The position numbers were made by a program, and so were the translations under genes. 64,000 bases of DNA from assembly GCA_038061225.1 (NCBI GenBank), contig JBBTZT010000003.1:113092-177091 (forward strand), in the 5' to 3' direction. How positions within the stretch are numbered: the first letter of the stretch is position 1; every line of letters begins with the position of its first letter. Origin of the DNA: Patescibacteria group bacterium. Its GTDB lineage: Bacteria; Patescibacteriota; Microgenomatia; UBA8517. The notes beneath the pieces were generated by a model, which did no database searches, was not told the DNA's origin, and worked only from the letters and a program-made list of their open reading frames with translations. This document shows positions 10,099 to 58,158 of this stretch, in pieces.

Positions 10099-10120
10099 AT
10101 GGATATTGTATCATTTAAGA

Positions 10121-15773: not shown

Positions 15774-17256
15774 AAAATTATATACCCTGCCTGCGCAGGC
15801 AGGTCCTTGGAATTTGATGATTTTGATTGTTTTACTTCTGGCTTTTGTTTTAAGAACTTATAGAATTGGGGAACTTCTTGATTTCCATTATGATCAAGGT
15901 AGAGATGCTTTAGTTATCTGGGATTTAATTAATAAAGGTAAATTATTTTTAATTGGTCCAACTACAGGTTTAGCTGGTGTATTTAGAGGACCATTCTATT
16001 ATTATTTAATTGCACCATTTTATTTTTTAGGACAAGGAAACCCAATTTATCCAAGCCTATTTTTAGCCTTAACTACTGTTCTTGCAATCTGGTTAATGTA
16101 CTATCTAGTATCAAAATTTCAAGATAAACAAAGCGGTTTAATTGCAATTTTACTGGCTTCTTTTTCATACTATATGATCTGGGCAAGTAGATGGTTAAGT
16201 AACCCTACACCAATGCTTTTATTATCCATGTTTTTGGTTTTGGGAATGTATATTGTTCTAAAAAGTAAACAATATGGATGGTATGTAATAGCTCTTGTTT
16301 CTGGTTTTTCACTTTTTAGTTTTGGTTCATCAGGTGAACTTTTCTACATTCCTGCAATTTTAATATTTTTGATATTGAATTGGAAAAACAGACCAAATGC
16401 AAAAACTTTAATTGTATCAACGGTTTTATTTATATTTACTTTCTCCCCACTTATAATTTTTGATATTAAACATAATGGAATTTTAAGGAATGGAATGAGT
16501 AAAAATTTTATTGAGGAAAAAAGTTTCACATTTCCTCCCAAAAATATTATAGAAAGTCGAACAAAATTGTACTACGAATCATTTTCAACAAAGCTATTCC
16601 ATTATAGAGGTAGATCAGAATTAATTTTACTCTCTATTTTATTAGTATTATTTATATACCTATTGCCATCACTTTATAAAAATAAATTTTCAAAAATTGT
16701 ATTACTATTACTCATTTCTCCATTGATTGGTCTTTATTTTTATCAAGGAAATAATAATAATTTCTATGAATATTATCTGACAGGTTATTATATGATTTAT
16801 ATAATGCTTTCAAGTTTAGTTCTAGGAAAACTATGGCAAAAAAAATATCTAGGGAAATTATTTGTAATTATTTTTTTATTAATTTTCATACGCAATAATT
16901 ATGAACCACTTAAGTTTAAATTGACATCTAATTCAGACAATCCAAACAGTATTACATTTATCAACCAACTACAAGCTGTTGATTATTTAGCTCATGATTC
17001 AGTTGGCAATAAGTTTAATATTGATGCCTATGTTCCCCCTGTCATTTCATATTCTTATGACTATTTATTTAAATGGAAAGGAGTAATACAAGAAGAAAAT
17101 CAGGTAAGATTACTTTATACCTTATACGAAGAAGATCCACCACATCCAGAAAGACTTAAAGCTTGGCTTGATAGACAAAAAGGAATTGGAAAAGTGATAG
17201 AAGAAAAAAAATTTGGTGCAATAACCGTACAAAAAAGGGAAAGGTTTGTTAAATGA
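15757..17256 (+). CDS. GT-C fold membrane glycosyltransferase, family A paralog 2 (start may instead be ATG 15817)
   Basis: HYDQGRDALV motif. Paralog of 13294. The N-terminal 20 codons contain the 18-bp palindrome. Confidence 0.55.
   Translation: MLEKIKKLYTLPAQAGPWNLMILIVLLLAFVLRTYRIGELLDFHYDQGRDALVIWDLINKGKLFLIGPTTGLAGVFRGPFYYYLIAPFYFLGQGNPIYPSLFLALTTVLAIWLMYYLVSKFQDKQSGLIAILLASFSYYMIWASRWLSNPTPMLLLSMFLVLGMYIVLKSKQYGWYVIALVSGFSLFSFGSSGELFYIPAILIFLILNWKNRPNAKTLIVSTVLFIFTFSPLIIFDIKHNGILRNGMSKNFIEEKSFTFPPKNIIESRTKLYYESFSTKLFHYRGRSELILLSILLVLFIYLLPSLYKNKFSKIVLLLLISPLIGLYFYQGNNNNFYEYYLTGYYMIYIMLSSLVLGKLWQKKYLGKLFVIIFLLIFIRNNYEPLKFKLTSNSDNPNSITFINQLQAVDYLAHDSVGNKFNIDAYVPPVISYSYDYLFKWKGVIQEENQVRLLYTLYEEDPPHPERLKAWLDRQKGIGKVIEEKKFGAITVQKRERFVK
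15786..15803. repeat. 18-bp perfect G+C-rich palindrome CCTGCCTGCGCAGGCAGG (copy 1)
   Basis: The sequence equals its own reverse complement. An identical copy lies at 43642..43659. Confidence 0.9.
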
Positions 17257-18746
17257 ACAATAAAGTAAAAATAATACTTTTTTCTATTCTGATATTATCG
17301 TTTTTATTACGCCTATATAACTTTAGATCTTATTACGTTTTTTCTCATGATCAAGATCTTGCTTCATGGATTATTAAAGACATTTTAGTAAATGGCCACT
17401 TAAGACTTATTGGTCAAGAAACATCTAGTCAGGGAGTTTTTATTGGGGCGCTTTTTTATTATCTCCAAATACCTTTTTATCTTTTTGGTAGAATGAGCCC
17501 GTTATCTGCTGTCTTTTTACCTGTAATTTTAGGAGTATTTGCAACATATAGTTTATTTTTTGTTTTTAGTAAAATTGCAAATATTAAATTAGGATTGATT
17601 GCTGCATTTATTTATGCAGTATCTGCTTTAATTGTTTTCGTTGATCGTGAGGTAGCTCCAACAATGCCTGTAATGCTATGGACAATGTGGTATTTATATA
17701 GTCTTTTCTTGATTTACAAAAGCAAGTATTTAAAGGGTTTTGTTTTAAATATCTTCTTAATTGGATTGATTTGGCATTTAAATCCTTCCTTAATTTTACT
17801 AACACCTTTAGTCTTAGTTGCGTTTTTGTTTTCTAAAAAGAAAATTGATAAAGTAACCATTTTCAATGTAAAAGCGATACTTATTGGATTTTTGGTTTTG
17901 TTTTTAACTAGTTTGCCTCTAATTTTCTTTGAGTTTAGACACGATTTTAGTCAGACAAAAGCAGTTATTTTATCGTTAACTACCAAGAAAGATTTTATTC
18001 AAGGCACTTCAACAGGTTTTGCAAAATTTGATAGAGTTATGCAACTTGTTAACAAAAATACCATTAGCATTTTTTCTAAACATCATTTCATTCACCCAAG
18101 TATAGTATTTATTTTGTTAATTAGTTTACTTTATTATTTTATTAAAATTAAAAAAATTAATTTATTTTTGTCTACCACATTTATTTTGTGGTTGGGACTC
18201 TATATTGTTTTTTTTAGTCTAAATTCTAAAAACCCTTCAGAATATTATTTTAATGGCATGAATATTATCTGGATTTTTATTGCTTCCTTAGGTCTTTTTG
18301 AACTTAAGAAAACAAAGGTAGGATTATTACTTTTTTATCTATTAACAATCTTGTTTTTTCTAGTAAATATAAATTATATATTTAAATATAACCCTGACAA
18401 AAAAGGATATATTGAAAAAGTTGATTTAGTAAAATATATAAATGCAGACAGGATAAAACGTGATTATCCTTGTATCTCGATATCTTATATAACAAATCCG
18501 GGGTACGATTTAGGTTATAGATATTTATTTTATTTAGAAAATATGCATGTAAATAGACCTATATCAAACTCTCCAGTTTATACCATAGTTTATCCACACA
18601 ATTTGGTTAATAGTATTGATAAAGCATTTGGATCTTTAGGGCTTATTTATCCTGATTATGACCGTTATAATAAAGAAGAAGTGGAAAAAAGTTATATTGG
18701 TGCAAATTCTAATTTAACTGATCCAATGTTTGGATACACTGAATAA
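17253..18746 (+). CDS. GT-C fold membrane glycosyltransferase, family A paralog 3
   Basis: SHDQDLASW motif; GxxxYY and FEFRHDF motifs shared with family A. Confidence 0.55.
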   Translation: MNNKVKIILFSILILSFLLRLYNFRSYYVFSHDQDLASWIIKDILVNGHLRLIGQETSSQGVFIGALFYYLQIPFYLFGRMSPLSAVFLPVILGVFATYSLFFVFSKIANIKLGLIAAFIYAVSALIVFVDREVAPTMPVMLWTMWYLYSLFLIYKSKYLKGFVLNIFLIGLIWHLNPSLILLTPLVLVAFLFSKKKIDKVTIFNVKAILIGFLVLFLTSLPLIFFEFRHDFSQTKAVILSLTTKKDFIQGTSTGFAKFDRVMQLVNKNTISIFSKHHFIHPSIVFILLISLLYYFIKIKKINLFLSTTFILWLGLYIVFFSLNSKNPSEYYFNGMNIIWIFIASLGLFELKKTKVGLLLFYLLTILFFLVNINYIFKYNPDKKGYIEKVDLVKYINADRIKRDYPCISISYITNPGYDLGYRYLFYLENMHVNRPISNSPVYTIVYPHNLVNSIDKAFGSLGLIYPDYDRYNKEEVEKSYIGANSNLTDPMFGYTE

Positions 18747-19494
18747 TATGAATATATCTATAATCATACCATCTTTTAATGAAGAAAATAATATAAGAAC
18801 GGGATCTCTTTCAGGGATAGTTGATTATTTAAATCAACAAAAATATAGATGGGAAATAATTGTAGTAGACGATGGGTCTAGTGATAAAACTGCAGAGCTA
18901 GCTGAAAAATTTGCTAAAAACCACAAAAATGTTGTTGTTCTGAGAGAACCTCATAGAGGAAAAGGTGGAACTGTTATTGCGGGAATGCTAAAAGCTAATG
19001 GAGATGTTGTTATTTTTGACGACATGGATCAAGCAACACCGATTGATCAATTAGAAAAAATATTACCAAAATTTTCAAATGGCTACGATATAGTTATTGG
19101 TTCAAGAGTGGGTAGAGAAGGTGCACCTTTAATCAGGAAAACAATGGCCTTAGGATTTTCTATCTTACGCAATTTAGTATTGCGACTTCCATATAAAGAT
19201 ACACAGTGTGGATTTAAAGCTTTTAAAAAGAAAGCATCTAATGAAATATTTAAACGTTTACAGATTTTTAATCAACAACAAGCACAATCTGGAGCTTCAG
19301 TTTCAGCAGGATTTGATCTTGAAATATTATATGTTGCCAGAAAATTAAAATTAAAGGTGGCGGAAGTTCCTGTCGTTTGGCATCACAAAGAAGGAACTAA
19401 AGTTAATCCAATTAAAGATAGTTGGGAAGGTCTAAGAGATCTAATGAAAGTAAGACTAAATGCTATTCAAGGAAAATATAATTTAAGGAGATGA
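18730..19494 (+). CDS. GT2 polyprenyl-phosphate glycosyltransferase (Dpm1/GtrB-like)
   Basis: ISIIIPSFNEENNI...VVDDGSSDKT...FDDMDQATP...GFKAF. Confidence 0.7.
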   Translation: MDTLNNMNISIIIPSFNEENNIRTGSLSGIVDYLNQQKYRWEIIVVDDGSSDKTAELAEKFAKNHKNVVVLREPHRGKGGTVIAGMLKANGDVVIFDDMDQATPIDQLEKILPKFSNGYDIVIGSRVGREGAPLIRKTMALGFSILRNLVLRLPYKDTQCGFKAFKKKASNEIFKRLQIFNQQQAQSGASVSAGFDLEILYVARKLKLKVAEVPVVWHHKEGTKVNPIKDSWEGLRDLMKVRLNAIQGKYNLRR

Positions 19495-20321
19495 AAACTA
19501 AATCTTCAAAAATAGTTTTGTTCAAAGATCAAAAAATTAGACGTGATTGGAATAAAAAAGAACAAAAATGGTATTTTTCTGTTATTGATATCGTAGGAGT
19601 TTTAAGCAAAAGTACCAGCACTCAGGCATATTGGCGCAAGTTGAAGGAAAGGTTAAAAGCTGAAGGTAGCGAAACCGTGACAAAATGTCACGGTTTGAAA
19701 ATGAAAGCGATTGACGGAAAAATGAGGTTAACAGACGTGGCAGATACTGAAACAATGCTTAGATTAATCCAATCAATACCATCACCTAACGCTGAGCCTT
19801 TTAAATTATGGCTTGCGAGAGTTGGTTATGAAAGAATTGAAGAAACTGAAGATCCAGAAAAAGGAATTCAACGAGCATTGTCTACATATCTTAAAAAAGG
19901 ATATTCCAAATCATGGGTTGATCTAAGGCTTAAAAGTATAGAAATTAGAAAAGATTTAACTAATGAGTGGGATGAAAGAGGTGTTAGTAACTCAAAAGAA
20001 TATGCAATATTAACTGACGATATTACCTTTGCATGGGCGGGACTTCGAACAAAAGATTACAAAGATTATAAAAATTTAAAAAAAGAAAATTTGCGGGACA
20101 ATATGACTAATTTGGAGTTAGTTTTAAATATGTTAGCAGAGACAGCAACTACAGAAATTTCAAAAACTAAAAAACCTGATACTTTTTATAAAAATAGAAT
20201 TGTTGCCAAAGAAGGAGGGGATATTGCGGGAAGAGCAAGAAAACAAATTGAAGTCAAAAGCGGTAGAAAAGTGGTCAGTAAATATCGTTTTGGCGAAAAA
20301 AGAGATAAACTATTAAAATGA
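19491..20321 (+). CDS. Bro-N domain protein (phage antirepressor / DinD-like)
   Basis: N-terminal Bro-N signature (F....iR.....WYFSVIDIVGVL...ESGLY-type, LIQSIPSPNAEPFKLWLARV). ATGA coupling on both sides. Confidence 0.55.
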   Translation: MKTKSSKIVLFKDQKIRRDWNKKEQKWYFSVIDIVGVLSKSTSTQAYWRKLKERLKAEGSETVTKCHGLKMKAIDGKMRLTDVADTETMLRLIQSIPSPNAEPFKLWLARVGYERIEETEDPEKGIQRALSTYLKKGYSKSWVDLRLKSIEIRKDLTNEWDERGVSNSKEYAILTDDITFAWAGLRTKDYKDYKNLKKENLRDNMTNLELVLNMLAETATTEISKTKKPDTFYKNRIVAKEGGDIAGRARKQIEVKSGRKVVSKYRFGEKRDKLLK

Positions 20322-21841
20322 ACTTTAGGAAAATCTTTAAGGAGTGGAAGTGGACGATATTTGGATTGGTTATTATTTTGATGATTGGTTTAGTAATAAG
20401 AATCGTAAACTTAACGATTCTTCCGATTTTTGTTGATGAGGCAATCTACGTTAGATGGGCACAAGTCATGGCTATTGAGCCAACCTTAAGATTTTTACCT
20501 TTATCAGATGGTAAGCAACCTCTTTATATGTGGATTTTGATGTTTTTAATTAAATATTTTTCCGATCCCTTATTTATTGGACGTTTAGTATCGGTTATGA
20601 CGGGTATGGGAACTGCCGTGGGCGTGTTTGTGTTTAGTTATGTTTTATTTAAAAACAAATTTGTTTCTTTAATTTCTTTATTACTTTATATCTTGTCACC
20701 ATTCATTTTTTTCTTTGACAGAATGGCTTTAGTTGATTCAATGTTATCAATGTTTGGTATTTGGACAGCTATTTTTTCTTTTTTGACTGCAAAATATAAA
20801 CGACTTGATCTTGCAATGATAGCTGGATTTATGTTGGGGTTTGCTGCTTTAACCAAATCTCCTGCCATGTTTACTGCCTTATTGTTACCAAGTTTTTGGG
20901 CTTTAACAAATTGGAAAGGTATTTGGAGGTTGGGAGTTACTTATTTTATAGCTTTTGTGATGTATAACATTCAAAGATTGGGTCCAAATTTTGGACAATT
21001 AAGTGCCAGAACTGGTGATTATATCTTACCGATTAGCCATATTTGGACAAGGTTTTTCGATCCACTCTTACCACATTTAAAAGATTTTGTGGTCTGGTTA
21101 TCAAGCATGGGACCAGTTGCACTAATACCTCTTGTTTTGCTTGGTATATTTTTAGGATTTAAAAAATATTTTAAACAAACACTTGTTCTTGTTGTTTGGG
21201 GGCTATTTCCAGTTTTTATTCAAGCAGAACTGGGTCTAACTTTTACTGCTAGGTATGTATTTTTTACATTGCCTTATTTATTTATTTTGGCAGGAATGTC
21301 CTTTTTAATACAAATTAAATGGTTGCGAGTTACGATTCATGGGTTACTGGCTTTTTTTGTAATTCAAAGTATCATATTTGATTATTATCTTTTAACTAAC
21401 CCTGAAAAAGCTAATTTACCAAGAGGTGAAAGATCTGGGTATTTAGAGGAGTGGACTGCAGGACAAGGAATCAAAGAAGTATCTCTTTATATAAGAAAAG
21501 AAGAATTAAAAGATAAAGGTAAGCAAATTGTTGTTGGAACTGAAGGTTATTTTGGAACATTACCAGATGGATTACAGTTATATTTAAATGATTTGCCAAA
21601 TGTGATAGTTATTGGTGTTGGAGTTATTATTGATGATACTCCTAAGAGTTTAAAAGAAGCAGTCAAAGCAGGAAATAAAACTTATTTAGTTATTAATAAA
21701 TCAAGGTATAAAGGTAAAGCAGAAGAACAAGGCCTAAAACTTATAGCAAAATATCCAAAAGGATTAAGACTAACAGATTCAAGGCAATATGTAATAAATG
21801 GCCCACAAGAAGAACTTCTCTTCTTCGAACTCACAAAATGA
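20318..21841 (+). CDS. GT-C membrane glycosyltransferase, ArnT/PMT (GT39/GT83)-like singleton
   Basis: IFVDEAIYVRWAQ first periplasmic loop (classic DE motif); about 11 TMs. Confidence 0.6.
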   Translation: MNFRKIFKEWKWTIFGLVIILMIGLVIRIVNLTILPIFVDEAIYVRWAQVMAIEPTLRFLPLSDGKQPLYMWILMFLIKYFSDPLFIGRLVSVMTGMGTAVGVFVFSYVLFKNKFVSLISLLLYILSPFIFFFDRMALVDSMLSMFGIWTAIFSFLTAKYKRLDLAMIAGFMLGFAALTKSPAMFTALLLPSFWALTNWKGIWRLGVTYFIAFVMYNIQRLGPNFGQLSARTGDYILPISHIWTRFFDPLLPHLKDFVVWLSSMGPVALIPLVLLGIFLGFKKYFKQTLVLVVWGLFPVFIQAELGLTFTARYVFFTLPYLFILAGMSFLIQIKWLRVTIHGLLAFFVIQSIIFDYYLLTNPEKANLPRGERSGYLEEWTAGQGIKEVSLYIRKEELKDKGKQIVVGTEGYFGTLPDGLQLYLNDLPNVIVIGVGVIIDDTPKSLKEAVKAGNKTYLVINKSRYKGKAEEQGLKLIAKYPKGLRLTDSRQYVINGPQEELLFFELTK

Positions 21842-21854
21842 TACAATTTAAATT

Positions 21855-23330
21855 GTGGAAGAAGAAATTGGAATAGAAACAATAGGAATAGAGACCATAA
21901 AGCAAAGATCTGTTCGTGGAGTTGTTATTTTAACTGGTAGAACTTTTTTACTTCAAATTATTGGTCTTGTTGCACAATTTTTTCTATTTGCCTATCTTGG
22001 TGGTTATGAATTTGGAGTTTTTGCAATTATTTCTGCAATCATTAATTTTCTAGTTTATTTTTCTGATATTGGACTAGCTGCAGCTTTAATTCAGAAAAAA
22101 GAAACTCCAACTGATACAGATTTAAAAACAACTTTCTTTGTTCAACAAATATTAATTTTCACAATAATTGGAATTGTTTTTTTACTAACCCCTTTCTTTG
22201 TCCAAAAATATTCACTAACCTATGATGGTCAAATACTTTTATACGCATTATCTTTATCCCTTGTCTTTTCATCTCTTAAAAGTATTCCTTCAGTACTTTT
22301 GGAAAGAAAATTGGAGTTTATTAAATTAGTTTTTCCCCAAATTTTAGAACAAATTGTTTATAACGTAGTTTTGGTATTTTTTGCCATGAAGGGTTTTGGT
22401 TTAAAAAGTTTTACTATTGCAGTAATTTTAAGGGGAATTATAGGACTTGTTGCAATTTATGCACTTCAACCATGGAAACCTGGAATTGCCTTTTCCTTAA
22501 ATACTCTAAAAGGATTATTTAAATTTGGTATTCCATATCAAATTAATACATTTTTAGCAACGCTAAAAGATGATGGAATGACGATTGTGTTAGGAGGAAT
22601 AATCGGTCCAGTTGGAGTTGGAATATTATCATTTGCTCAGAAGTTAGCGAGGCTTCCGTTAACATTTTTTATGGATACGGTAACACGTGTGACTTTCCCT
22701 GCATTTTCAAGAATGCAAGATCACAAGAATGATTTAGAAAGAAGTGTTACAAGATCAATATTTTTCATTTGTCTTTTTGTTTTTCCAAGTTTAATGGGAA
22801 TAATTATACTTTCTCCATTGTTAGTTCGTGTTGTTCCAAGATATGAACAATGGATACCAGCACTTATCCCAATTATATTTATCTCAATAAATTTTGCTTT
22901 TGCCAGTGCTACAACACAACTTACTAATCTTTTAAATGCGATTGGCAAAATTAAAATAACATTTTATTTAATGATAATGTGGACTGTTTTATCTTGGACT
23001 TTTATTCCATTTTTAGCTCTAAAATTTGGAGTATTGGGAGCATCAATTGGTTATGCTTTAGTTGGGTCATCATCTCTAATTGCGATATATATAGCTAAGA
23101 AGTATGTAAACTTTGGAGTTATCGATTCAATGATCAAGCCATTGATTGGATCAGTTGTTATGGGGGTAGTCTTGATTTTTGTACGTAAATTTTTGGATAT
23201 TAGTGTGAATTCAATGCTTATTCTAAGTTTAGTTGGTGTATTAGTTTATGGTTCGTCAATGATTTCTATGATGGGTGTTTCTTTAATAGAAGATGCTAAA
23301 AAAAGTTACAAAACAATTTTCTCTCGTTAG
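21855..23330 (+). CDS. Wzx/MOP-superfamily polysaccharide flippase (GTG start inferred)
   Basis: 14 predicted TMs. The N-terminal RGVVILTGRTFLLQIIG pattern is typical of polysaccharide biosynthesis/flippase proteins. Confidence 0.6.
   Translation: MEEEIGIETIGIETIKQRSVRGVVILTGRTFLLQIIGLVAQFFLFAYLGGYEFGVFAIISAIINFLVYFSDIGLAAALIQKKETPTDTDLKTTFFVQQILIFTIIGIVFLLTPFFVQKYSLTYDGQILLYALSLSLVFSSLKSIPSVLLERKLEFIKLVFPQILEQIVYNVVLVFFAMKGFGLKSFTIAVILRGIIGLVAIYALQPWKPGIAFSLNTLKGLFKFGIPYQINTFLATLKDDGMTIVLGGIIGPVGVGILSFAQKLARLPLTFFMDTVTRVTFPAFSRMQDHKNDLERSVTRSIFFICLFVFPSLMGIIILSPLLVRVVPRYEQWIPALIPIIFISINFAFASATTQLTNLLNAIGKIKITFYLMIMWTVLSWTFIPFLALKFGVLGASIGYALVGSSSLIAIYIAKKYVNFGVIDSMIKPLIGSVVMGVVLIFVRKFLDISVNSMLILSLVGVLVYGSSMISMMGVSLIEDAKKSYKTIFSR
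21869..21898. repeat. 15-bp tandem repeat GGAATAGARACMATA x2 at the 5' end of the flippase ORF
   Basis: 12/15 identity between units; encodes IGIETIGIETI. Confidence 0.8.
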
Positions 23331-25014
23331 CCTAATAATAATTGGAACTATCACATGGTCTTTGACTATGGTAAGAAGTGGACTGCTTTATAAATTTGGT
23401 TATGGATTTTGGGGACCAAATGGCCATGATGGTATTTGGCACATAGCTCTTTCTAATAGTCTTTCTAAAGGAACTTTAGAAAATCCAATTTTTTCTGGTT
23501 CTTTGTTGCAGAATTATCACCTTGGTTTTGATCTGCTCTTAGCTTTGTTAAATAAATTAACAACAATTCCTATTAGTATTTTGTATTTCCAGATTCTGCC
23601 TCCTATTTTCGCTTTAATGATTGGTTTACTAGTATATTTATTTGTTTTAAATTGGAGAGGATCTAAAAATGAAGCACTATGGTCTACAGCCTTTGTTTAT
23701 TTTAGTTCATCGTTTGGATTTATTATTACATTTTTAAGAGATAGAGTTATCACAGGTGAGTCAATGTTTTGGTCACAACAATCTATCTCTACTTTAGTTA
23801 ATCCTCCTTTCGCACTATCTCTAATATTTATTTTATCTGCTCTTATCTCTTTACAAAAAAAGAATTTATTTTTTAGTATTATATTTTTTGGAATATTAAT
23901 TCAAATTAAAGCTTATGCCGCTATTCTTGTTCTTGCTGGTTTGTTTATCTCTGGTCTGTATTCATACATCTTCCATCATAAATCTTACATCTTAAAAGTC
24001 TTTCTTGCTTCACTTTTTTTAAATTTAATTTTGTTTGTGACAACAAGGAGTGACGGCTTGTCAACGTTTGTTTGGCAACCTATGTGGTTTTTAGAAACTT
24101 TAATGTCCTATTCAGATAGATTTGGTTGGGAAAGGCTTTATTCTGCAATGACAACTTATAAAATGGGGCATATTTGGTTTAAAGAAATTTTGGCATATTC
24201 ATTAGCTTTTGCAATTTTTATACTGGGTAATATGGGAGTGCGTATTATTGGATTTTATTATTTTTTAAAAGTACTTAAAAATAAAATCAAAATTGATGAA
24301 ATTTTAGTATTTATTACTACTATTTTGTTAATGGCGATTATAATTCCAATGTTTTTAGTTCAAAAAGGTACGCCTTGGAATACTATTCAATTTTTCTATT
24401 ATTATTTATTCTTTTCCTCAATTTTTGCAGGTATATCTATGGATTTACTTACAAACAATAAAAAACGAATAGTTAGAGTTGGTTTAATGACTTTATTTTC
24501 TATGTTTACAATATTTGGAGCATGGTCTACCTTGCAACATTATTTACCTAAAATGCCACAATCTATGGTCTCAAATGAAGAATATGCCGCCTTAGATTTT
24601 TTGACTAAACAAACAGATGGAATAATTTTTACTTATCCATTTGATGAGAGTAAAGCCATTTTAGCTACTAAAAACCCTCCTCGTCCACTTTATTTCTATG
24701 AATCAACATCATATGTATCAGCTTTTACTCATAAACCAGTATTTCTTGAAGATCAGGTAAACTTAAACATCATGGGCTATAGCTGGGAGAATCGCAGAGA
24801 ACAGACGTTGTGGTTTATCTTAAACCTTGATAAAGAGGCGGGTAGAGAGTTTTTGGGTCGCAATAATATAAAATATTTGTATTTAGTTAAAGAAGCTTCA
24901 CCTCTTTTTGGAGAGCTACTTAGGTTAGGTTCGGCTGAATTAGATCTAAAGAAGATTTTTGAAAATAAAAAAAGTATAATATACCAATATGGCAAAGATT
25001 TCGGTAGTAATTAA
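23293..25014 (+). CDS. Polytopic membrane protein with C-terminal extracytoplasmic domain, family E paralog 1 (uncharacterised; possibly a polymerase/ligase-like GT-C)
   Basis: Motifs GHDGIWHIAL and ENPIFSGSLLQNYH shared with 38446..40281 (-). Confidence 0.5.
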   Translation: MLKKVTKQFSLVSLIIIGTITWSLTMVRSGLLYKFGYGFWGPNGHDGIWHIALSNSLSKGTLENPIFSGSLLQNYHLGFDLLLALLNKLTTIPISILYFQILPPIFALMIGLLVYLFVLNWRGSKNEALWSTAFVYFSSSFGFIITFLRDRVITGESMFWSQQSISTLVNPPFALSLIFILSALISLQKKNLFFSIIFFGILIQIKAYAAILVLAGLFISGLYSYIFHHKSYILKVFLASLFLNLILFVTTRSDGLSTFVWQPMWFLETLMSYSDRFGWERLYSAMTTYKMGHIWFKEILAYSLAFAIFILGNMGVRIIGFYYFLKVLKNKIKIDEILVFITTILLMAIIIPMFLVQKGTPWNTIQFFYYYLFFSSIFAGISMDLLTNNKKRIVRVGLMTLFSMFTIFGAWSTLQHYLPKMPQSMVSNEEYAALDFLTKQTDGIIFTYPFDESKAILATKNPPRPLYFYESTSYVSAFTHKPVFLEDQVNLNIMGYSWENRREQTLWFILNLDKEAGREFLGRNNIKYLYLVKEASPLFGELLRLGSAELDLKKIFENKKSIIYQYGKDFGSN

Positions 25015-25900
25015 TACCTACAACGAAGAAAAGAAAATTGGTCGTTGTTTGGCATCTCTTAAAGGTTTTGCAAACGAAATAATAGTTGTTGACATGATGT
25101 CAACAGATAGGACAAGGGAATTGGCTAAAAAGTACAATGCAAAAATATTTAAACACAAAAAAATTAGCTATGTTGAACCTGCTAGAAACTTTGCAATCGA
25201 AAAAGCCAAAAATGATTGGGTTTTCATATTAGATGCGGATGAAGAAATTCCAGAAAGTCTAAAAATATATTTAAAGAAAGAAATAAAAGAACCTCAAGCT
25301 CAATTTTATAGAATTCCAAGAAAAAATATAATCTTTAGTAAATGGATGAGACACTCTGGTTGGTGGCCTGATATGAATATCAGATTTTTTAAGAAGGGAT
25401 CTGTAATCTGGGATGAAGTAATTCACTCTGTACCAATGACAACAGGTAAAGGTATGGATCTTCCGCAAAAGCAAGAATTTGCTATTAAACATAGGCACTA
25501 TTCTTCTGTTGAAGAATATATAACCAGAATGAATAGGTATACAACAATTCAAGCTAAGGAATTAAATAAAAAAGGAATTGAATTTAAGTGGAGAGATATT
25601 TTAATTAAACCAGCATCAGAGTTTTTAAGAAGATATTTTGCTGAAGAAGGGTATAAAGATGGTTTGCATGGCCTTACTATTTGTTTGTTACAAATTCTTT
25701 CAGAGTTAGTTGTATATGCAAAACTATGGCAAAAACAAGAATTTAGAAAAAGAAAAATTGATGCTAGTGATACTTTTAATGAGCTTAAAATAATATCCAA
25801 GGATTTTATGTGGTGGGTTTATGCTTCAAAAATTAATGATTCAAGTAACTTTATTTCTAAAATATGTCTAAAAATAATTCGAAAACTAAAGTATCGATAA
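24989..25900 (+). CDS. GT2 family glycosyltransferase
   Basis: ISVVINTYNEEKKI...VVDMMSTDRT...ILDADEE. C-terminal GYKDGLHG motif shared with 25864 and 46284. Confidence 0.65.
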   Translation: MAKISVVINTYNEEKKIGRCLASLKGFANEIIVVDMMSTDRTRELAKKYNAKIFKHKKISYVEPARNFAIEKAKNDWVFILDADEEIPESLKIYLKKEIKEPQAQFYRIPRKNIIFSKWMRHSGWWPDMNIRFFKKGSVIWDEVIHSVPMTTGKGMDLPQKQEFAIKHRHYSSVEEYITRMNRYTTIQAKELNKKGIEFKWRDILIKPASEFLRRYFAEEGYKDGLHGLTICLLQILSELVVYAKLWQKQEFRKRKIDASDTFNELKIISKDFMWWVYASKINDSSNFISKICLKIIRKLKYR

Positions 25901-26598
25901 CCGCCATAGTTATTTTTGGAGGTAATTATAACAAAAAGTTATTGGAAAGCGCTAAAAAATCAGTTTCTTGGTGTAGCGAATTAATTTTAATTAATGGGAC
26001 TAAAGGAAATTTTAGCGATTGGAGAAATGAAGGATTAAAAAAAGCAAAAGGAGATTGGGTTTTATATGTAGATAGTGATGAGGAAATTTCTCATGCTTTA
26101 TATGAAGAAATTTTGTCAACCGTCAACCGTTCACCGTCAACCGTTCACGCTTTCGCAATCCCACGAAGGAACATTATTTTTAACAAAGAATTTAAATACT
26201 CAGGTCAATATCCTGATTATCAAAAAAGGTTATTTAAAAAAGATAAATTAACAAAATGGATTGGTGAAGTTCATGAGGAGCCAATTGTCGATGGTGAAAT
26301 TGGATATTTGAAAAATGCGATAATTCATCACAAAAATATGACAATAAGTGAGATGGTTGAAAAAACAAACAATTGGTCTGAAATTGAAGCAGAACTTATG
26401 TTTAAAGCTAGTCATCCTAAAATGAATTTTATTAGATTCGCGTCTGCAGGATTTCGTGAATTCATGTTACGTTTTATTAAACAAAAAGCATTTTTAGATG
26501 GAAAAGAAGGTGTAATTTACGGAATATATCAAATATATAGTAAACTAATATCTTATTCTAAATTATGGGAAAAGCAGCTATCTACAATCCGTACCTAG
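25864..26598 (+). CDS. GT2-like glycosyltransferase (divergent N-terminus)
   Basis: YVDSDEE motif; C-terminal FLDGKEGV like 24989 and 46284. Contains the 14-bp tandem duplication. Confidence 0.5.
   Translation: MSKNNSKTKVSITAIVIFGGNYNKKLLESAKKSVSWCSELILINGTKGNFSDWRNEGLKKAKGDWVLYVDSDEEISHALYEEILSTVNRSPSTVHAFAIPRRNIIFNKEFKYSGQYPDYQKRLFKKDKLTKWIGEVHEEPIVDGEIGYLKNAIIHHKNMTISEMVEKTNNWSEIEAELMFKASHPKMNFIRFASAGFREFMLRFIKQKAFLDGKEGVIYGIYQIYSKLISYSKLWEKQLSTIRT
26115..26148. repeat. 14-bp tandem duplication GTCAACCGTTCACC x2 (plus a leading half-unit) inside the CDS 25864..26598
   Basis: Direct reading; encodes STVNRSPSTVHA. Confidence 0.9.
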
Positions 26599-27599
26599 AT
26601 ACTTTAGGTGGGGGAGAACGTTACAGTTTAACCTTTGCTAAAGTATTAGCGGAAATTGGGTTTGACGTTGATATTGAATGGAAAGATAAATCAATAAAAG
26701 AAAAACTCTCGAAAAGATTTGGATTAAAATTGCCAAATAATATTAATGTTGTTGATAATATCAATCGCGGGGAAGGTTATGATATTTGTTTTTGGGTAAC
26801 AGATGGTAGCATTCCCACTTTGAGATCGAGAAGAAATTATCTTCACTTCCAAGTTCCATTTCATGATGTCAATGGAACATCGTTGCTAAATAAAATGAAG
26901 TTATTTAGAATAGAAAAAATAATTTGTAATTCTTACTTTACCAAAACAATAGTTGACAAAGAGTATGGAGTAAATTCTATTGTTCTTTATCCACCCGTTG
27001 CTACGGATTTGTATAAAGCAAAAAGAAAAATTGAGCAGATTTGTTATGTCAGTCGTTTTTCTGAATTAACACAAAATAAAGGGCATGACATTTTAATTAA
27101 ACAATTTAAATTATTAGTTAAAGACAAAAAGTTTAAAGAATGGAAATTAGTTTTAGCAGGCGGGACTGAAATAGGTTCAACTGATTATCTTAAAAGACTA
27201 AAGAAAATGAGCAGTGGATATAATATAGAATTTGTAGAAAGTCCTACGGTAGATATTTTAAAAAATATATTTGGCAAATCAAAAATATTTTGGTCTGGTT
27301 CAGGGTTTAGTGAGAATGAAGTTAAAAATCCTGAAAGAGTGGAACATTTTGGAATTACACTAGTTGAGTCGATGTCCGCAGGATGTGTTCCTGTCGTATA
27401 TAAGGCAGGTGGATATAAAGAAATTATTGATAATAGTAAAAATGGATTTTTATGGAATGATAAAAAAGATCTTTTAGAATTAACTAAAAAAACAGTAAAA
27501 GAAAAAGGATTATTAAAAACAATTTCTAAAAATGCGATTGACTCGTCAAAAAAATATAGCTATGAAACATTTAAAAATGAAATCAGAAAAATTATATAG
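26565..27599 (+). CDS. GT4 family glycosyltransferase
   Basis: E-x7-E motif FGITLVESMSAGCVPVV. Confidence 0.65.
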   Translation: MGKAAIYNPYLDTLGGGERYSLTFAKVLAEIGFDVDIEWKDKSIKEKLSKRFGLKLPNNINVVDNINRGEGYDICFWVTDGSIPTLRSRRNYLHFQVPFHDVNGTSLLNKMKLFRIEKIICNSYFTKTIVDKEYGVNSIVLYPPVATDLYKAKRKIEQICYVSRFSELTQNKGHDILIKQFKLLVKDKKFKEWKLVLAGGTEIGSTDYLKRLKKMSSGYNIEFVESPTVDILKNIFGKSKIFWSGSGFSENEVKNPERVEHFGITLVESMSAGCVPVVYKAGGYKEIIDNSKNGFLWNDKKDLLELTKKTVKEKGLLKTISKNAIDSSKKYSYETFKNEIRKII

Positions 27600-29124
27600 T
27601 GTCTTATCAATTGCAATATTTGTAATTGCATTTTTTTTAAGGGTAATGTTTTTGCAAAATAACGCATTAACTTTTGGATATGACCAAGCACGAGATGCAT
27701 TAATTGCTAAGCAAATCATTTCAGGAGATATTAAAATACAAGGACCACCATCTTCAGCTCCGGGGCTTTATCATGGCGTTTTTTATTATTACTTATTAGC
27801 ACCAGCTTATCTAATAGGTCACGGAAGCCCTATTGTTGTGGCTTATTATTTAGCTTTTTTAAATTCACTTACTGTTTTTATTGTTTTTTTTACAGCGAAG
27901 CTGGCCACGAAGAATTCGTGGATTGCACTTTTGTCAGCATCTTTATACGCTATTTCATTTGAATCAACTCAATACGCAACATGGCTTAGCAATCCAACAA
28001 TCGCGGTCTGGACAGTCCCTTTAATGTATTTAGGCTTATGGATTTGGATTTTATCAATAAAACAAAAGAAATTAATAGTCGGTCCAATTTTAGCAGCAAT
28101 TGGATTGGGTCTTTCCATACAAGCGGAAATATTTCTTGCCTATCATATTGTTCCTCTTCTGATATGGTTGGCGATTTACAACAAAAATATTACTAAAAAA
28201 AGTTTATATTATTTTTTTGGATTTTTAATCTTTGTAACCTTTAGTCTTATTCTCTGCGAGTTTAAATTTGGTTTTAATAGTTTAACTGCTATAAAATCAC
28301 TAGCTACAACAAGCGGGGGGAATTTGGCATATGCAAAATCTGTTGGTGATTATTTAATTCTTTATTTAAATCAAGTGGGTCGTATTTTTGCCTTTAATAC
28401 TTACCCTGGGAATATTGGATATGGTGGTGGAGTAATAATTATACTTGGGATATATTCACTTTTAAATTACACACATAGCTTCGCTGCCAAAAAAAATCCA
28501 TACCCTGCATTTTTAGCAGTTTGGCTATTTTCTCATCTATCTGTTGTTACTGTTGGCGGAATGTCAACCCCCTTTTTAATGGTTGGAATTGGACCAGCAA
28601 TATCTTTGATGTTGGGTTTTTATATATATAAATTATTTAATAAAAAGAGAATTTTTGCTATTTTAATTTTTTTAATAATATTTTATGGAAATTTAAATTT
28701 TATTCTTTCTCAGAATAAATTAGGGTCAACTCTTTTTTCTATACAAAAAGACATGCTTCTTTCAAAACAAATTGATGCGATTGACTATACATATCAATTA
28801 GCCGACGGAAAACCATTTAGCATTAGTAGTCTGACATCTCCTCTTTGGATAAATATTGTTTGGACATATTTATATAAATGGTATGGGGTGAATACTTACG
28901 GATATGCCCCTTATTGGCATGGTAAGGATCAAATAGGACAGCTTGATAGTTTAGAGAGAATTGACAATCCCTTTGATACATCATTTCTAATACTTGAGCC
29001 TATGGCAGGCATACCTGTTAGATATTTGTCAGAAACAATTGCTGAGGAAGATGTCGATACCAAAATGGTTGAAGAAAAATCCTTCGGAGAAATAATAGTT
29101 CAAAAAAGAATAAAAATTTTTTAA
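27577..29124 (+). CDS. GT-C fold membrane glycosyltransferase, family A paralog 4
   Basis: GYDQARDALIAKQI, GxxYYYL; paralog of 13294/15757/17253. Confidence 0.55.
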   Translation: MKSEKLYSVLSIAIFVIAFFLRVMFLQNNALTFGYDQARDALIAKQIISGDIKIQGPPSSAPGLYHGVFYYYLLAPAYLIGHGSPIVVAYYLAFLNSLTVFIVFFTAKLATKNSWIALLSASLYAISFESTQYATWLSNPTIAVWTVPLMYLGLWIWILSIKQKKLIVGPILAAIGLGLSIQAEIFLAYHIVPLLIWLAIYNKNITKKSLYYFFGFLIFVTFSLILCEFKFGFNSLTAIKSLATTSGGNLAYAKSVGDYLILYLNQVGRIFAFNTYPGNIGYGGGVIIILGIYSLLNYTHSFAAKKNPYPAFLAVWLFSHLSVVTVGGMSTPFLMVGIGPAISLMLGFYIYKLFNKKRIFAILIFLIIFYGNLNFILSQNKLGSTLFSIQKDMLLSKQIDAIDYTYQLADGKPFSISSLTSPLWINIVWTYLYKWYGVNTYGYAPYWHGKDQIGQLDSLERIDNPFDTSFLILEPMAGIPVRYLSETIAEEDVDTKMVEEKSFGEIIVQKRIKIF

Positions 29125-29126
29125 AT

Positions 29127-29777
29127 ATGAATACAAAAAAAATAGGTGAGGATTTACATGCACACGTTCCTGCAAACTGGTATTTTGAAAGTTTAAAAAA
29201 AGATCCATTTCAAAAATATTGGCATACTACAAGATTTAGAGAAGTTAAAAAGGTAATAACTACAGCTGACTCGGTATTAGACGTTGGTTGTGCGGATGGA
29301 GTTTTCTCTAATGTAATTTTTAAAAGTACAAATGCTAAAAAGTTTATAGGGCTTGATATTGTTAAAACATCAATTGAATGGGCAAAAAAACATTGGTCTA
29401 AAAATAGGGAAATGAAATTTATAGTAGCAGATGCTCACAGTTTGCCTTTCAAAGATAAAATATTTGATGCAGTCTTTTGTTTGGAAGCATTAGAGCATGT
29501 TGCAGATCCTATTAGAGTGTTAAGTGAATTTAAAAGAGTTATGAAAAAAGGAGGCTATGGTGTCTTTTTAGTTCCATCGGATAATAATTTATTTAAAGTG
29601 GTTTGGTGGTTGTGGTTACATTTTTATCCAAGAGGTTGGGTTTGGAGGGAAACTCATATTCAAACATATAGAGACAGTTATCTGCCAAAAGCATGTAAAA
29701 AAGCAGGTTTTGAAGTGGAACTAGACAGAAAATTTAATTTAGGAATGTTACACTTAGTTAAAGTAACAAAACCATGA
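29127..29777 (+). CDS. Class I SAM-dependent methyltransferase
   Basis: Motif I VLDVGCADGVFS; FDAVFCLEALEHV. Confidence 0.75.
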   Translation: MNTKKIGEDLHAHVPANWYFESLKKDPFQKYWHTTRFREVKKVITTADSVLDVGCADGVFSNVIFKSTNAKKFIGLDIVKTSIEWAKKHWSKNREMKFIVADAHSLPFKDKIFDAVFCLEALEHVADPIRVLSEFKRVMKKGGYGVFLVPSDNNLFKVVWWLWLHFYPRGWVWRETHIQTYRDSYLPKACKKAGFEVELDRKFNLGMLHLVKVTKP

Positions 29778-30682
29778 GATCCAGCTACGCTATGAAAGTA
29801 TCAATAGTTATCCCAAATTATAATGGTAGAGAGTTTTTGGAAACAAATCTACCTAGTATTATTTCTGCACAGTATAATCCAAAGAATAAAATATTTGAAA
29901 TAGTGATAGTGGATGATCGTTCTACAGATGAAAGCGTTAGTTATCTTAATAATAAATACAAAAATATAATCCGTTTAATTAAACACACTAAAAACAGAGG
30001 TTTTTCTGCAACTGTTAATACAGGAGTTAGGTCGACAACAGGAGATTTCATTTGTCTATTAAATACTGACGTTTTACCTTCCACTAATTTTTTAGAATTA
30101 GTATTAGATAGTTTTAGAGATGAAAAAGTATTTGCAGTTTCTCTCCACGAAAAAAATTATGGTCCTGCAAGAGGTTATTTTGAAGATGGATTTATACAAA
30201 TAAGTTCAAAAAAAGAATCTAAAGAAATTGAAAATAGTTTTTATGTAAGTGGAGGAAGTGGTGTATTTAGAAAAAGTATTTGGCAAGAATTAGGAGGATT
30301 AGATGAAAAGTTATTATCTCCATTTTATTGGGAAGATATTGATATATGTTTTAGAGCAGCTAAAAGAGGTTACTTAAATTTATGGAATCCTTTTGGAAGG
30401 GTTGTTCATAATCATGAATCAACTATTTCAAAATTATCCAAAAAATATATAGAAAGAGTTCGTGAGAGAAACCAATTATTAATGCTTTGGAAAAATCTAC
30501 ATAGTAAAGCAATGTTTGAGAAACATTTAAATGGTTTGTTTAAGCGGATATTAAAAAATCCAAGATATCTTCGAATTATCTTAATGTCGTTATTTAAATT
30601 GGGCTTAGTTATTAAAGCCAGACGTAAGGAAATAAAAGAATGTATTGTTAGTGATGAAGCAGTTTTTCAAAAATATCAATGA
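29774..30682 (+). CDS. GT2 family glycosyltransferase; paralog of 7638..8534 (-)
   Basis: VSIVIPNYNGREFL...VDDRSTDES...NRGFSATVNTG...LNTDV. Confidence 0.75.
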   Translation: MRSSYAMKVSIVIPNYNGREFLETNLPSIISAQYNPKNKIFEIVIVDDRSTDESVSYLNNKYKNIIRLIKHTKNRGFSATVNTGVRSTTGDFICLLNTDVLPSTNFLELVLDSFRDEKVFAVSLHEKNYGPARGYFEDGFIQISSKKESKEIENSFYVSGGSGVFRKSIWQELGGLDEKLLSPFYWEDIDICFRAAKRGYLNLWNPFGRVVHNHESTISKLSKKYIERVRERNQLLMLWKNLHSKAMFEKHLNGLFKRILKNPRYLRIILMSLFKLGLVIKARRKEIKECIVSDEAVFQKYQ

Positions 30683-32319
30683 TTAAACTTTTTTGGTTTG
30701 GCTTGATAGTTATCTTTACAATTCCTGCTTTTTGGAATCTACTTCGACCTGGGTTTTTTTCGATGCAGGATGATCTGCAAGCTTTTCGTATTCAACAAAT
30801 GGATAAATGTTTAACTGACTTTCAGATTCCCTGTCGCTGGGTTCCTGATGCTGGTTATGCTTATGGTTATCCTCAATTTAATTACTATCCACCTCTTCCT
30901 TATTATGTTGGAGCAGTGCTTCATAGAGTAGGAATTCAATATATTGATGTAGTTAAAATATTATTTATCATAGGTTATATCTTGTCTGCTATTGCTATGT
31001 ATATCTTAGTTAGTGAATTAACTAATAAATGGTCGGGATTTGTAGCTTCAGTTCTCTATACTTATATTCCATATAAAGCGGTTGAAGTTTACGTCAGGGG
31101 TGCGTTAAGTGAATTTTGGGCGCAAGTTTTCTTTCCTTTAATATTATGGTCTTTATATAAACTAATTAAGACAAATAAAAAGATTTATATCCCAACGACA
31201 GCCTTATTTATAGGTTTACTGGCAACAACCCATACCCTAATGACTATGATATTTGCTCCAATTGCTATTTTGTGGGCATTTTACTGGTTATATTTACAAA
31301 AGGGAAAAAATATAAACAAAATAGTTTGGGCTGGAATACTTGGAGTAGGGCTTTCTGCTTTTTTCTTACTCCCTGTAATTTTTGAGAAGAAATTTGCCCA
31401 TGTTGACTCTGTTCTTTCAGGTTATTTTGATTATAGAGCTCATTTTGTAAGTTTGTATAAACTTTTTATATCTCGCGAGTGGGGATATGGATCATCAGGT
31501 TTTCCCAATGAAAAATTAAACTTATCACTTGGAATTGTGCAATGGCTGGCTGGCTTATTTGCTGGATTACTTGCTTTAATTAGTTACAAAAAAAACAAAA
31601 TTTTATCTCTTACTACTTTCTGCATACTACTTGCTACATTGTTTTCTGTTTTTATGATTCATATGAAATCAAGTTTCATTTGGGCTAAGTTACCATTTAT
31701 GTGGTATTTACAATTTCCCTGGAGATTTTTGGCTGTTTCTATATTTCTTTTGTGTTTGTTGTCTGGTTTTTTTATATTCTTTTCAAAAAAACTCCAATAT
31801 ATTTTAGGAATAATTTTAATTATTGCTTCTATTATCCTAAATATTAAATTTTTTGTTCCTAAAGATTGGCTTTATATAACTGATGCCGATAAATTTTCAG
31901 GTGTTAGTTGGCAAAAACAAATGACAATATCAATTTTTGATTATTTACCAATTTATGCAACTCTTCCTCCAATAAATGAAGCTCCTGATATACCAGAAGT
32001 GTTAGATGGAAAAGCTTTATTTAGTGATTATAAAAAGGGAAGTAATTTTCAAACTGGGAAAGTAGATGTTTTAGAAGATGCAACAATTAGAATTCCTCTA
32101 TATGATTTTCCAGGAATGCAGGTTAAAGTAGATAGTAAAAAAGTAGAACATTATAATAATGATTGCAGGGGGCAAGAGTTTTGCTACGGGCTAATTTCCT
32201 TCAAATTGCCCGAAGGTGAATATAATATAGAAGTCAAATTAACAGATACTCCAATTAGGAAAATAGGTAATTTAGTATCACTTGTTAGTATAATAATATT
32301 ATTATGGTTAAGTTTTTGA
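30679..32319 (+). CDS. Polytopic membrane glycosyltransferase-like protein, family B paralog 1 (DD first-loop motif)
   Basis: FSMQDDLQAF, PCRWVPD, YxxRGALSE shared with 32304 and 33875. About 13 TMs plus a C-terminal beta-rich domain. Confidence 0.5.
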   Translation: MIKLFWFGLIVIFTIPAFWNLLRPGFFSMQDDLQAFRIQQMDKCLTDFQIPCRWVPDAGYAYGYPQFNYYPPLPYYVGAVLHRVGIQYIDVVKILFIIGYILSAIAMYILVSELTNKWSGFVASVLYTYIPYKAVEVYVRGALSEFWAQVFFPLILWSLYKLIKTNKKIYIPTTALFIGLLATTHTLMTMIFAPIAILWAFYWLYLQKGKNINKIVWAGILGVGLSAFFLLPVIFEKKFAHVDSVLSGYFDYRAHFVSLYKLFISREWGYGSSGFPNEKLNLSLGIVQWLAGLFAGLLALISYKKNKILSLTTFCILLATLFSVFMIHMKSSFIWAKLPFMWYLQFPWRFLAVSIFLLCLLSGFFIFFSKKLQYILGIILIIASIILNIKFFVPKDWLYITDADKFSGVSWQKQMTISIFDYLPIYATLPPINEAPDIPEVLDGKALFSDYKKGSNFQTGKVDVLEDATIRIPLYDFPGMQVKVDSKKVEHYNNDCRGQEFCYGLISFKLPEGEYNIEVKLTDTPIRKIGNLVSLVSIIILLWLSF

Positions 32320-50930: not shown

Positions 50931-50931
50931 T

Positions 50932-55581: not shown

Positions 55582-55619
55582 TGTAAGATATAGGATGGAT
55601 GATGTAGGATATAAGAAGT

Positions 55620-55982: not shown

Positions 55983-56008
55983 ATCTTATATCATACATCT
56001 TAAATCAT

Positions 56009-57124: not shown

Positions 57125-57132
57125 TCAAATTT

Positions 57133-58116: not shown

Positions 58117-58158
58117 TACTAGAATTATTGAACTTAAACTGTTATTATTTCTCCATAA

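Follow-up and report, generated by a model that had tools for sequence, protein, structure and literature searches.

Class-A GT-C glycosyltransferases carry an invariant aspartate in the first extracytoplasmic loop (EL1), which is their hallmark catalytic residue (D56 in PglB, D55 in ArnT, D69 in ALG6 and D58 in PimE) and has its counterpart in the DE motif of the PMT enzymes. In the oligosaccharyltransferases (OSTs), the catalytic acids are the DxD or DxD-DxH-DxE motifs of EL1 and EL2 together with a glutamate in EL5, holding a divalent cation, and the WWDYG motif of the C-terminal domain binds the serine or threonine at position +2 of the sequon. GT-C enzymes with diphosphate donors typically need a metal. 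Here we analyzed a stretch of 64,000 nucleotides (the window) from a Patescibacteria group bacterium (assembly GCA_038061225.1, contig JBBTZT010000003.1, positions 113,092 to 177,091 of the forward strand). This bacterium belongs to the Candidate Phyla Radiation (CPR), whose members are uncultured, ultra-small and probably epibiotic, and whose surface biochemistry is almost unknown. The window encodes two members of a membrane protein family, referred to as family E, which a previous sequence-only reading had picked out by shared motifs; both open reading frames (ORFs), A and B, were found at the expected positions and strands and with the expected motifs by ORF listing and motif coordinates (Table 1). 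According to a structural model of ORF A, family E consists of class-A GT-C glycosyltransferases, and sequence searches set it apart as a family of its own.

Results

Family E has the predicted fold of a class-A GT-C glycosyltransferase

An AlphaFold2 (AF2) model of ORF A was calculated from an alignment of 38 sequences and reached a mean pLDDT of 87.9 and a pTM of 0.89. When this model was compared to solved structures by Foldseek, the first ten positions were taken by OST catalytic subunits (STT3A/B, yeast Stt3, PglB and AglB) at E-values of 1e-8 to 2e-7 and query TM-scores of 0.48-0.55, followed by DPY19, AftA and ALG9. OST subunits were top-ranked in all three structure searches, and the polytopic membrane fold is common to ORF A and the solved class-A enzymes. 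These matches place the modeled protein among the class-A GT-C glycosyltransferases, within which family E forms a family of its own. No chain of WaaL, Wzy, RodA or FtsW appeared in either list of structure matches, and neither a Wzy_C model nor a WaaL/SEDS-type fold was found for family E, by which an identity with WaaL or Wzy is ruled out on fold. The polymerase, ligase or transferase role that had been suggested by analogy to O-antigen ligases or arabinosyltransferases is thus supported in general terms by the structural comparison that the sequence-only reading had recommended.

The membrane topology was derived from hydropathy, the positive-inside rule and the DSSP assignment of the AF2 model. 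ORF A is predicted to possess 11 transmembrane (TM) helices with the N-terminus inside and the C-terminus outside, and a C-terminal alpha/beta domain (C-domain) of 155 residues. The lysine- and arginine-rich loops (residues 121-127, 188-191, 228-231, 329-335 and 388-394) are predicted on the cytoplasmic side. EL1 (28-93), EL2 (about 151-170) and the C-domain (418-573) are predicted on the outer face, together with one long (252-294) and one short (355-360) loop. An independent check on this topology comes from the fused relative P0242, in which a signal peptide, a soluble domain, one TM helix and RNKLSEIRRKKAKW precede the first TM helix of the family (TM1), so that TM1 must start inside. The C-domain is of the OST central-core globular type, as carried by STT3/AglB/PglB, DPY19, AftA and AftD. 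ORF B comprises the core of ORF A and two extra N-terminal TM helices, amounting to 13 in all. The earlier estimate of about 11 TM helices and a soluble C-terminal domain for both proteins accordingly fits ORF A, whereas ORF B exceeds it.

The two proteins align over their full length with 30% identity (BLASTP, E = 8e-61), which is far beyond chance and identifies them as true paralogues. In the public gene calls for the source genome, ORF B is shortened to 548 aa; homologues of about 605 aa span 99-100% of the 611-aa form, and a size of about 600-680 aa is kept throughout the B subfamily. With both longest ORFs taken as genuine, ORF B (minus strand) and the PMT_2 ORF at 40218 (plus strand) overlap divergently at their 5' ends by 64 nt (40218..40281). 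In two related loci (L084 and L085) the B-type and PMT_2 genes are about 20 nt apart, and in the window one of these two genes has probably been given a start codon too far upstream.

Family E is a new family that has so far been found only in Microgenomates

Neither ORF A nor ORF B had a meaningful match in the Pfam or NCBIfam libraries (dated 2025-2026), even at E ≤ 10, and a Pfam scan of 41 family members gave nothing above noise. The sole recurrent sub-threshold Pfam match, DUF6798, occurred in 17 of these 41 at the start of the C-domain (best E-value 9e-4). The PDB yielded no chain at E ≤ 10, either from the single sequence (phmmer) or from a profile of 38 members (hmmsearch). The motifs therefore do lie outside the named families of these curated libraries, as had been noted from the sequence. 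The PMT_2 model (PF13231) was not matched by ORF A, ORF B or any of the 41 members even at E ≤ 1. Likewise, when the family was compared by hhalign to other proteins of the window (PMT_2, PTPS_related and unassigned multi-TM), the probability remained below 1% throughout, which argues that family E is not a divergent copy of its neighbors; the profile of the family C-domain found no match among 15 other GT-C-like ORFs of the window. Two members bear the automatic UniRef name 'Glycosyltransferase RgtA/B/C/D-like domain-containing protein'. No description of family E was found in literature searches on GT-C enzymes, oligosaccharyltransferases or glycosylation in CPR bacteria, Patescibacteria or Microgenomates. 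Thus, the superfamily is known and the family is new, as neither a curated model nor a published description was found.

At E ≤ 1e-3, more than 1,320 relatives of ORF A and 561 of ORF B were retrieved from 5.8 billion proteins. In a profile search against 1.84 billion representatives at 50% identity, 1,739 passed E ≤ 1e-3 and 963 of these passed E ≤ 1e-30. The named relatives are 'hypothetical proteins' from metagenome-assembled genomes (MAGs) of Woesebacteria, Microgenomates or Patescibacteria, and ORF A itself is 100% identical to NCBI AAB625_01770. Scanning one genome per GTDB species gave 327 relatives, and the 80 loci retrieved from these belong to Woesebacteria, Blackburnbacteria, Amesbacteria, Shapirobacteria and other Microgenomates. 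Many contigs appear, with identical lengths, in the match lists of both ORFs, indicating that A and B usually co-occur on one contig. Family E has so far been found only in Microgenomates-group CPR bacteria.

Dozens of MAG records (L004, L012, L017-L019, L025, L028 and others) are titled 'uncultured Gammaproteobacteria bacterium' and contain a Microgenomates-type locus with the same gene order; a record titled 'Clostridia bacterium' (L076) likewise bears such a locus. Both kinds of title look like placeholders or taxonomic misassignments that came with bulk MAG submissions, and the Gammaproteobacteria titles were treated as placeholders because the gene order is identical to that of the Microgenomates loci.

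Conserved residues cluster on the predicted outer face

Conservation was scored on an alignment of 130 diverse family members. Near-invariant positions are G30, D46, H50, Y75, H76, E156, F159, W160, Q163, N170, K206, P263, W265, G312, N313, R317, Q357, N363, Q366 and Y474. Most of them are situated in or beside predicted outer-face loops; G312, N313 and R317 lie inside the TM helix formed by residues 295-328, and Y474, within a Y-V-S-A motif, is the only near-invariant residue of the C-domain. In the EL1 motif GHDGIWHIAL, D46 is present in 128, H50 in 127 and H45 in 111 of the 130 sequences. In the second EL1 motif, ENPIFSGSLLQNYH (its counterpart in ORF B is ENPIFAGTPLKNYH), Y75 and H76 are each found in 129, P65 in 120 and N74 in 118. 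The EL2 motif GESMFWSQQ has W160 in all 130, F159 in 127, E156 in 123 and Q163 in 122.

The conserved acid of EL1, D46, is located in a loop that is placed outside by the positive-inside rule as well as by the topology of the fused relative. By analogy to the class-A enzymes, we propose D46 as candidate catalytic base and E156 as candidate second active-site acid, with H45 and H50 as possible metal ligands. E156 together with three histidines would suggest a metal site resembling the Asp/Asp/His site of AglB. The long loop 252-294 has no conserved glutamate in the 130 members, and D46 with H45/H50 in EL1 and E156 in EL2 are to be regarded as candidates only. We also considered the I-W-D-W-F-D stretch of the B-type proteins, which reads L-Y-L-Y-E-S in the A-type, as a degenerate WWDYG motif. 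This was rejected, as WDWFD occurs in just 3 of the 130 sequences and the column is not conserved.

The A-type gene forms a conserved unit with a Wzx-type flippase

Directly upstream of ORF A, the window encodes a MOP flippase, which has full-length, sub-threshold likeness to the NCBIfam models of MOP flippases, TuaB and O-glycosylation Wzx proteins. Downstream, two GT2 genes and one GT4 gene follow with overlapping junctions. Synteny was determined by searching the ORFs of 83 related loci by phmmer, using the proteins of the window as queries. Of the 75 loci with sequence upstream of the A-type gene, 63 have the flippase gene as its direct upstream neighbor and 74 have it within 2.6 kb, and the two genes overlap in 59 of the 63 directly adjoining cases. 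The occasional inserts between them are an ORF of about 290 aa resembling methyltransferases, a PMT_2 gene or a DUF3863-like ORF. On the downstream side, a GT2 homologue is the immediate neighbor of the A-type gene in 67 of 82 loci. In five loci (L036, L037, L040, L046 and L052) the GT2/GT4 block is located elsewhere and the Wzx and A-type genes are still together. Thus, the A paralogue and a Wzx-type flippase form a conserved two-gene unit, followed by cytoplasmic GT2, GT2 and GT4 enzymes. The GT2 proteins next to ORF A match only a generic GT2 N-domain in NCBIfam, below the cut-off, and the one at 24989 is unlike a polyprenyl-phosphate sugar synthase. The proteins from related loci with the order Wzx, family E, GT2, GT2, GT4 share only 42-79% identity with ORF A. 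That the gene order recurs despite this divergence points to one conserved envelope glycoconjugate and not to a variable antigen.

The B-type gene resides in a different setting

ORF B is encoded on the opposite strand between a pair consisting of a GT87 gene and an ORF of 199 aa on one side and an array of four PMT_2 genes on the other. The same arrangement, with B inverted, is repeated in five related loci (L036, L040, L046, L084 and L085). All five possess an ORF of about 191-199 aa in the same position relative to the GT87 and B-type genes, and homology was detected by phmmer in the first three. For the product of the 199-aa ORF, a role as accessory subunit or a relation to the acceptor is conceivable. 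In two further loci, tandem B-type pairs on the strand of the PTPS_related genes (L037, 13151..17162; L052, 14638..17656) replace the single inverted copy, which suggests that the B subfamily has been duplicated and rearranged repeatedly.

Fused family members carry a DUF3863-like domain and, in one case, the flippase

Domain architecture was surveyed in the 150 best representatives at 50% identity, 105 of them A-like and 45 B-like. An N-terminal extension of about 400-590 aa was present in 38 of the 105 A-like proteins. By tblastn with the N-terminal halves of the fused proteins P0242, P0262 and P0277, this extension is homologous to a further ORF of the window, at 53731..55581 (35-41% identity, E-values of 1e-78 to 8e-93), and a profile of the extension finds the DUF3863 structure in the PDB (3lm3, E = 1e-6). 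P0277 (1,639 aa), encoded on a contig of 8.8 kb (L086), unites a Wzx-type flippase, a DUF3863-like domain and family E in a single ORF. Residues ~497-616 of the 53731 protein match the profile of the family C-domain (hhalign probability 97.3%, E = 2.6e-11). Judged from these similarities, the 53731 protein looks like the two outer domains of the fused members with the membrane module removed. Upstream of this ORF, the window has a second Wzx-like flippase (51742..52998) followed by a PgfS/PpgS-like GT2 (52995..53741).

Both paralogues are part of a very large glycosylation locus

As judged by Pfam annotation of the neighboring genes, which upholds the earlier assignment to a setting of lipid-linked glycosylation, the window largely consists of a glycosylation locus (12599..47141 and 49791..63302, and 11418..12569 on the minus strand). 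It encompasses genes for dTDP-rhamnose and other sugar-nucleotides, many GT2 and GT4 enzymes, methyltransferases and the two Wzx-like MOP flippases at 21855 and 51742. The GT-C families PMT_2, PMT, PTPS_related and GT87 account for about 15 ORFs, and two of the four multi-TM ORFs without Pfam match contain an F-D-G..Y motif as in PIG-V/GT87. Including the family E pair, about 19 GT-C-like genes are accommodated in about 50 kb, an extraordinary density for a genome of probably less than 1 Mb.

The GT2 proteins at 12599, 18730, 9995 and 52995 resemble the polyprenyl-phosphate sugar synthases PgfS, ArnC, AglJ or PpgS over nearly their whole length (NCBIfam, all below the curated cut-offs), and those at 12599 and 18730 directly adjoin PMT_2-type GT-C genes. 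The ORF at 9995..11245 (plus strand) is a GT2 fused to a GtrA/DPMS TM domain and would unite a polyprenyl-phosphate sugar synthase with a flippase; under a longest-ORF reading, about 100 nt of it are shared with the 5' end of trmD, which is encoded on the opposite strand (9430..10098). Among window ORFs of at least 120 aa, Pfam detected no initiating phosphoglycosyltransferase (Bac_transf, MraY/WecA), Wzz/PCP, LCP or Wzy_C/WaaL domain. With two Wzx-like flippases present and none of these domains detected, initiation and final ligation must depend on genes located elsewhere or on unrecognized proteins.

Three genes of other kinds are interspersed. A Bro-N domain protein (19491..20321, plus strand) is located between a GT2 and a PMT gene. 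Bro-N domains are usually linked to phages and viruses; the gene occupies the same place in L001, L004 and L007, which marks it as a conserved resident and not a recent insertion. A DHH/DHHA1 phosphoesterase (14784..15773, plus strand) between PMT_2 genes, also present in L001, could conceivably recycle nucleotide or polyprenyl phosphate. Finally, a 120-aa '23S rRNA-intervening sequence protein' (55620..55982, plus strand; PF05635, 8.6e-38), a bAvd-like four-helix bundle, is found amid the glycosylation genes.

Table 1 Positions of family E, its partners and the further GT-C-like genes in the window.
Feature	Position	Strand	Description
Wzx-type MOP flippase	21855..23330	+	Pfam Polysacc_synt_3, 2.4e-51; 3' end overlaps start of ORF A by 38 nt
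ORF A (family E, A-type)	23293..25014	+	573 aa, ATG start; predicted 11-TM GT-C class-A core and C-terminal alpha/beta domain
ORF A EL1 motif GHDGIWHIAL	23422..23451	+	Start of EL1 helix, ~23 residues after TM1
ORF A EL1 motif ENPIFSGSLLQNYH	23479..23520	+	Y75-H76 near-invariant
ORF A EL2 motif GESMFWSQQ	23755..23781	+	Outer face by positive-inside topology
ORF A extracytoplasmic alpha/beta C-domain	24544..25011	+	Residues 418-573; type as in OST, DPY19, AftA, AftD
GT2 glycosyltransferase	24989..25900	+	Pfam Glycos_transf_2, 1e-22; overlaps end of ORF A by 26 nt
Second GT2 of conserved block	25864..26598	+	Pfam, synteny
GT4 (Glycos_transf_1) of conserved block	26565..27599	+	Pfam 2.7e-21, synteny
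199-aa anchored ORF	37896..38495	+	One N-terminal TM/signal, no Pfam match; converges on ORF B with 50-nt 3' overlap
ORF B (family E, B-type)	38446..40281	-	611 aa, TTG start; core like ORF A, two extra N-terminal TM helices
ORF B motif GHDGTWHIAL	39958..39987	-	Counterpart of EL1 motif of ORF A
ORF B motif ENPIFAGTPLKNYH	39886..39927	-	Counterpart of ENPIFSGSLLQNYH of ORF A
ORF B third motif	39646..39672	-	Counterpart of EL2 motif of ORF A
Secreted/anchored protein, 616 aa	53731..55581	+	Signal/anchor, DUF3863-like domain, family-E-type C-domain
PMT_2/PMT ORFs	13294, 15757, 17253, 20318, 40218, 41668, 43280, 44686, 61152		Pfam
PTPS_related ORFs	30679, 32304		Pfam
GT87 ORFs	35491, 36635		Pfam
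Multi-TM ORFs without Pfam match	27532, 33875, 49791, 11418		

Discussion

Our findings make the A-type enzyme a good candidate for handling a conserved surface glycan after its outward flip. The Wzx flippases, the synthase-like GT2s and the cytoplasmic GT2/GT4 enzymes of the locus point to a sugar linked to polyprenyl phosphate or diphosphate at the outer face as putative donor class. We tentatively propose, at a probability of roughly 45%, that family E acts as an OST- or ligase-like transferase, moving a Wzx-flipped oligosaccharide en bloc from polyprenyl diphosphate to an outer acceptor. In such a pathway, the oligosaccharide would be built on polyprenyl diphosphate by GT2 and GT4 enzymes at the inner face and flipped outward by Wzx, whereupon the family E enzyme would bind the lipid-linked glycan at its outer-face site. 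D46, E156 and the histidines would probably hold a divalent cation against the diphosphate, and the C-terminal domain would present the acceptor, a protein side chain or a wall polymer, to which the glycan would be transferred en bloc. As WWDYG is absent, the acceptor is probably other than the classical N-x-S/T sequon. The B paralogue, amid other GT-C genes, may represent a second transferase that shares this chemistry but differs in its donor form or acceptor.

The main alternative, possible if rather doubtful, is a function closer to that of AftA or ALG3, in which family E would act as a priming or elongating transferase and add one sugar from a polyprenyl-monophosphate donor, the product of a PgfS/ArnC-like GT2, to a flipped lipid-linked oligosaccharide or a nascent wall glycan. 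The PMT_2, PTPS_related and GT87 enzymes would then extend this product, and Wzx would supply the acceptor rather than the donor. AftA has an architecture identical to that of family E, the margins in the structure searches are small and the machinery for monophosphate donors is abundant in the locus. However, all three of these searches put OST subunits first, and the tightest partner is Wzx, whereas in known three-component systems this place is taken by a polyprenyl-phosphate sugar synthase or a flippase of the GtrA type. The GT2 directly downstream of ORF A looks generic as well, and the outer site rich in His, Asp and Glu suggests a metal.

The tight pairing with Wzx would also fit the classical wzx-wzy adjacency, and as no Wzy is recognizable by Pfam in the window, family E might instead be an analogue of the Wzy polymerase and link Wzx-flipped polyprenyl-diphosphate repeat units head to tail. 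This is rendered improbable by the fold class, by the absence of a chain-length regulator and by a gene set that is conserved and not hypervariable. A non-catalytic role as GT-C-fold scaffold or substrate-presenting subunit, organizing the flippase and other enzymes in the manner of PIG-U in the glycosylphosphatidylinositol (GPI) transamidase, appears very improbable, since the predicted outer loops are where near-invariant Asp, Glu, His, Lys and Arg residues accumulate, as would be expected of an active enzyme, and catalytic GT-C enzymes outscore PIG-U by far.

If family E is indeed an en-bloc transferase, it would widen the range of bacterial STT3-fold enzymes and offer an acceptor specificity independent of WWDYG, with possible use in glycoengineering. 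In its furthest form, which we consider unlikely, this proposal would mean that Microgenomates-group CPR bacteria carry a third, so far unrecognized kind of bacterial oligosaccharyltransferase with an STT3-fold core, an OST-type C-domain, no WWDYG, a new acceptor rule and a connection to Wzx. The order of events would then be that of eukaryotic and archaeal N-glycosylation, from cytoplasmic glycosyltransferases via a MOP flippase and outer-face GT-C elongases fed by polyprenyl-phosphate sugars to an STT3-like en-bloc transfer onto surface proteins. If, on the other hand, family E primes in the manner of AftA, it would stand at the branch point of an assembly line for extracellular glycans in CPR bacteria, similar in style to that of mycobacteria. 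A single Microgenomates genome spends a locus of about 50 kb on outer-face glycosylation, and family E is the only GT-C in this locus that has an OST-type C-domain and the only one that adjoins a flippase, to which it is fused in one case (P0277). The family thereby offers a natural entry point to the attachment target of the glycoconjugate, and it deserves a curated model because its members are now annotated as 'hypothetical protein'.

How, then, does family E compare to the described systems? With WaaL, Wzy (Wzy_C) and the LCP ligases, the likeness would be functional only and consist in the use of a Wzx-flipped undecaprenyl-diphosphate glycan at the outer face and in a gene beside wzx. The other GT-C enzymes of the PMT_2/ArnT/PMT type (PF13231, PF02366; GT39/GT83) differ in that their PMT_2 model is not matched by family E. 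DPY19, the tryptophan C-mannosyltransferase (GT98), is eukaryotic, uses the monosaccharide donor Dol-P-Man, differs in the number of TM helices and has no sequence likeness to family E. AftA (GT85) has the same architecture of 11 TM helices and a C-terminal periplasmic alpha/beta domain. Still, neither AftA nor AftD shows sequence likeness to family E, no AftA chain of the PDB was matched at E ≤ 10 by sequence or profile, and AftA falls about four orders of magnitude behind the OSTs in the Foldseek search (1e-4 versus 1e-8). AftA also uses a decaprenyl-phosphate arabinose donor and has no Wzx flippase partner, unlike the A-type of family E.

The best structural likeness is to STT3, AglB and PglB (PF02516, GT66), whose outer C-domain is of the same kind. 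This likeness does not extend to the sequence, as PF02516 is matched neither by ORF A nor by ORF B nor by the 41 members (E ≤ 1-10) and no OST chain of the PDB was found at E ≤ 10. OSTs have 13 TM helices, whereas the core of family E has 11, and the 13 helices of ORF B result from N-terminal additions and not from the core. WWD[YWFN]G, and even WWD, occurs in none of the 130 family members, and no DK/MI or TIXE/SVSE motif is recognizable as conserved; in place of these OST motifs, family E has the signature H-D-x-x-W-H / N-Y-H / E-S-x-F-W-x-x-Q. The partner flippase differs as well, being of the Wzx type for family E and the ABC flippase PglK for PglB. An identity as canonical OST (GT66) is therefore ruled out by the absence of WWDYG, the 11-TM core and the missing match to PF02516. 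Family E is OST-like in shape and stands outside GT66.

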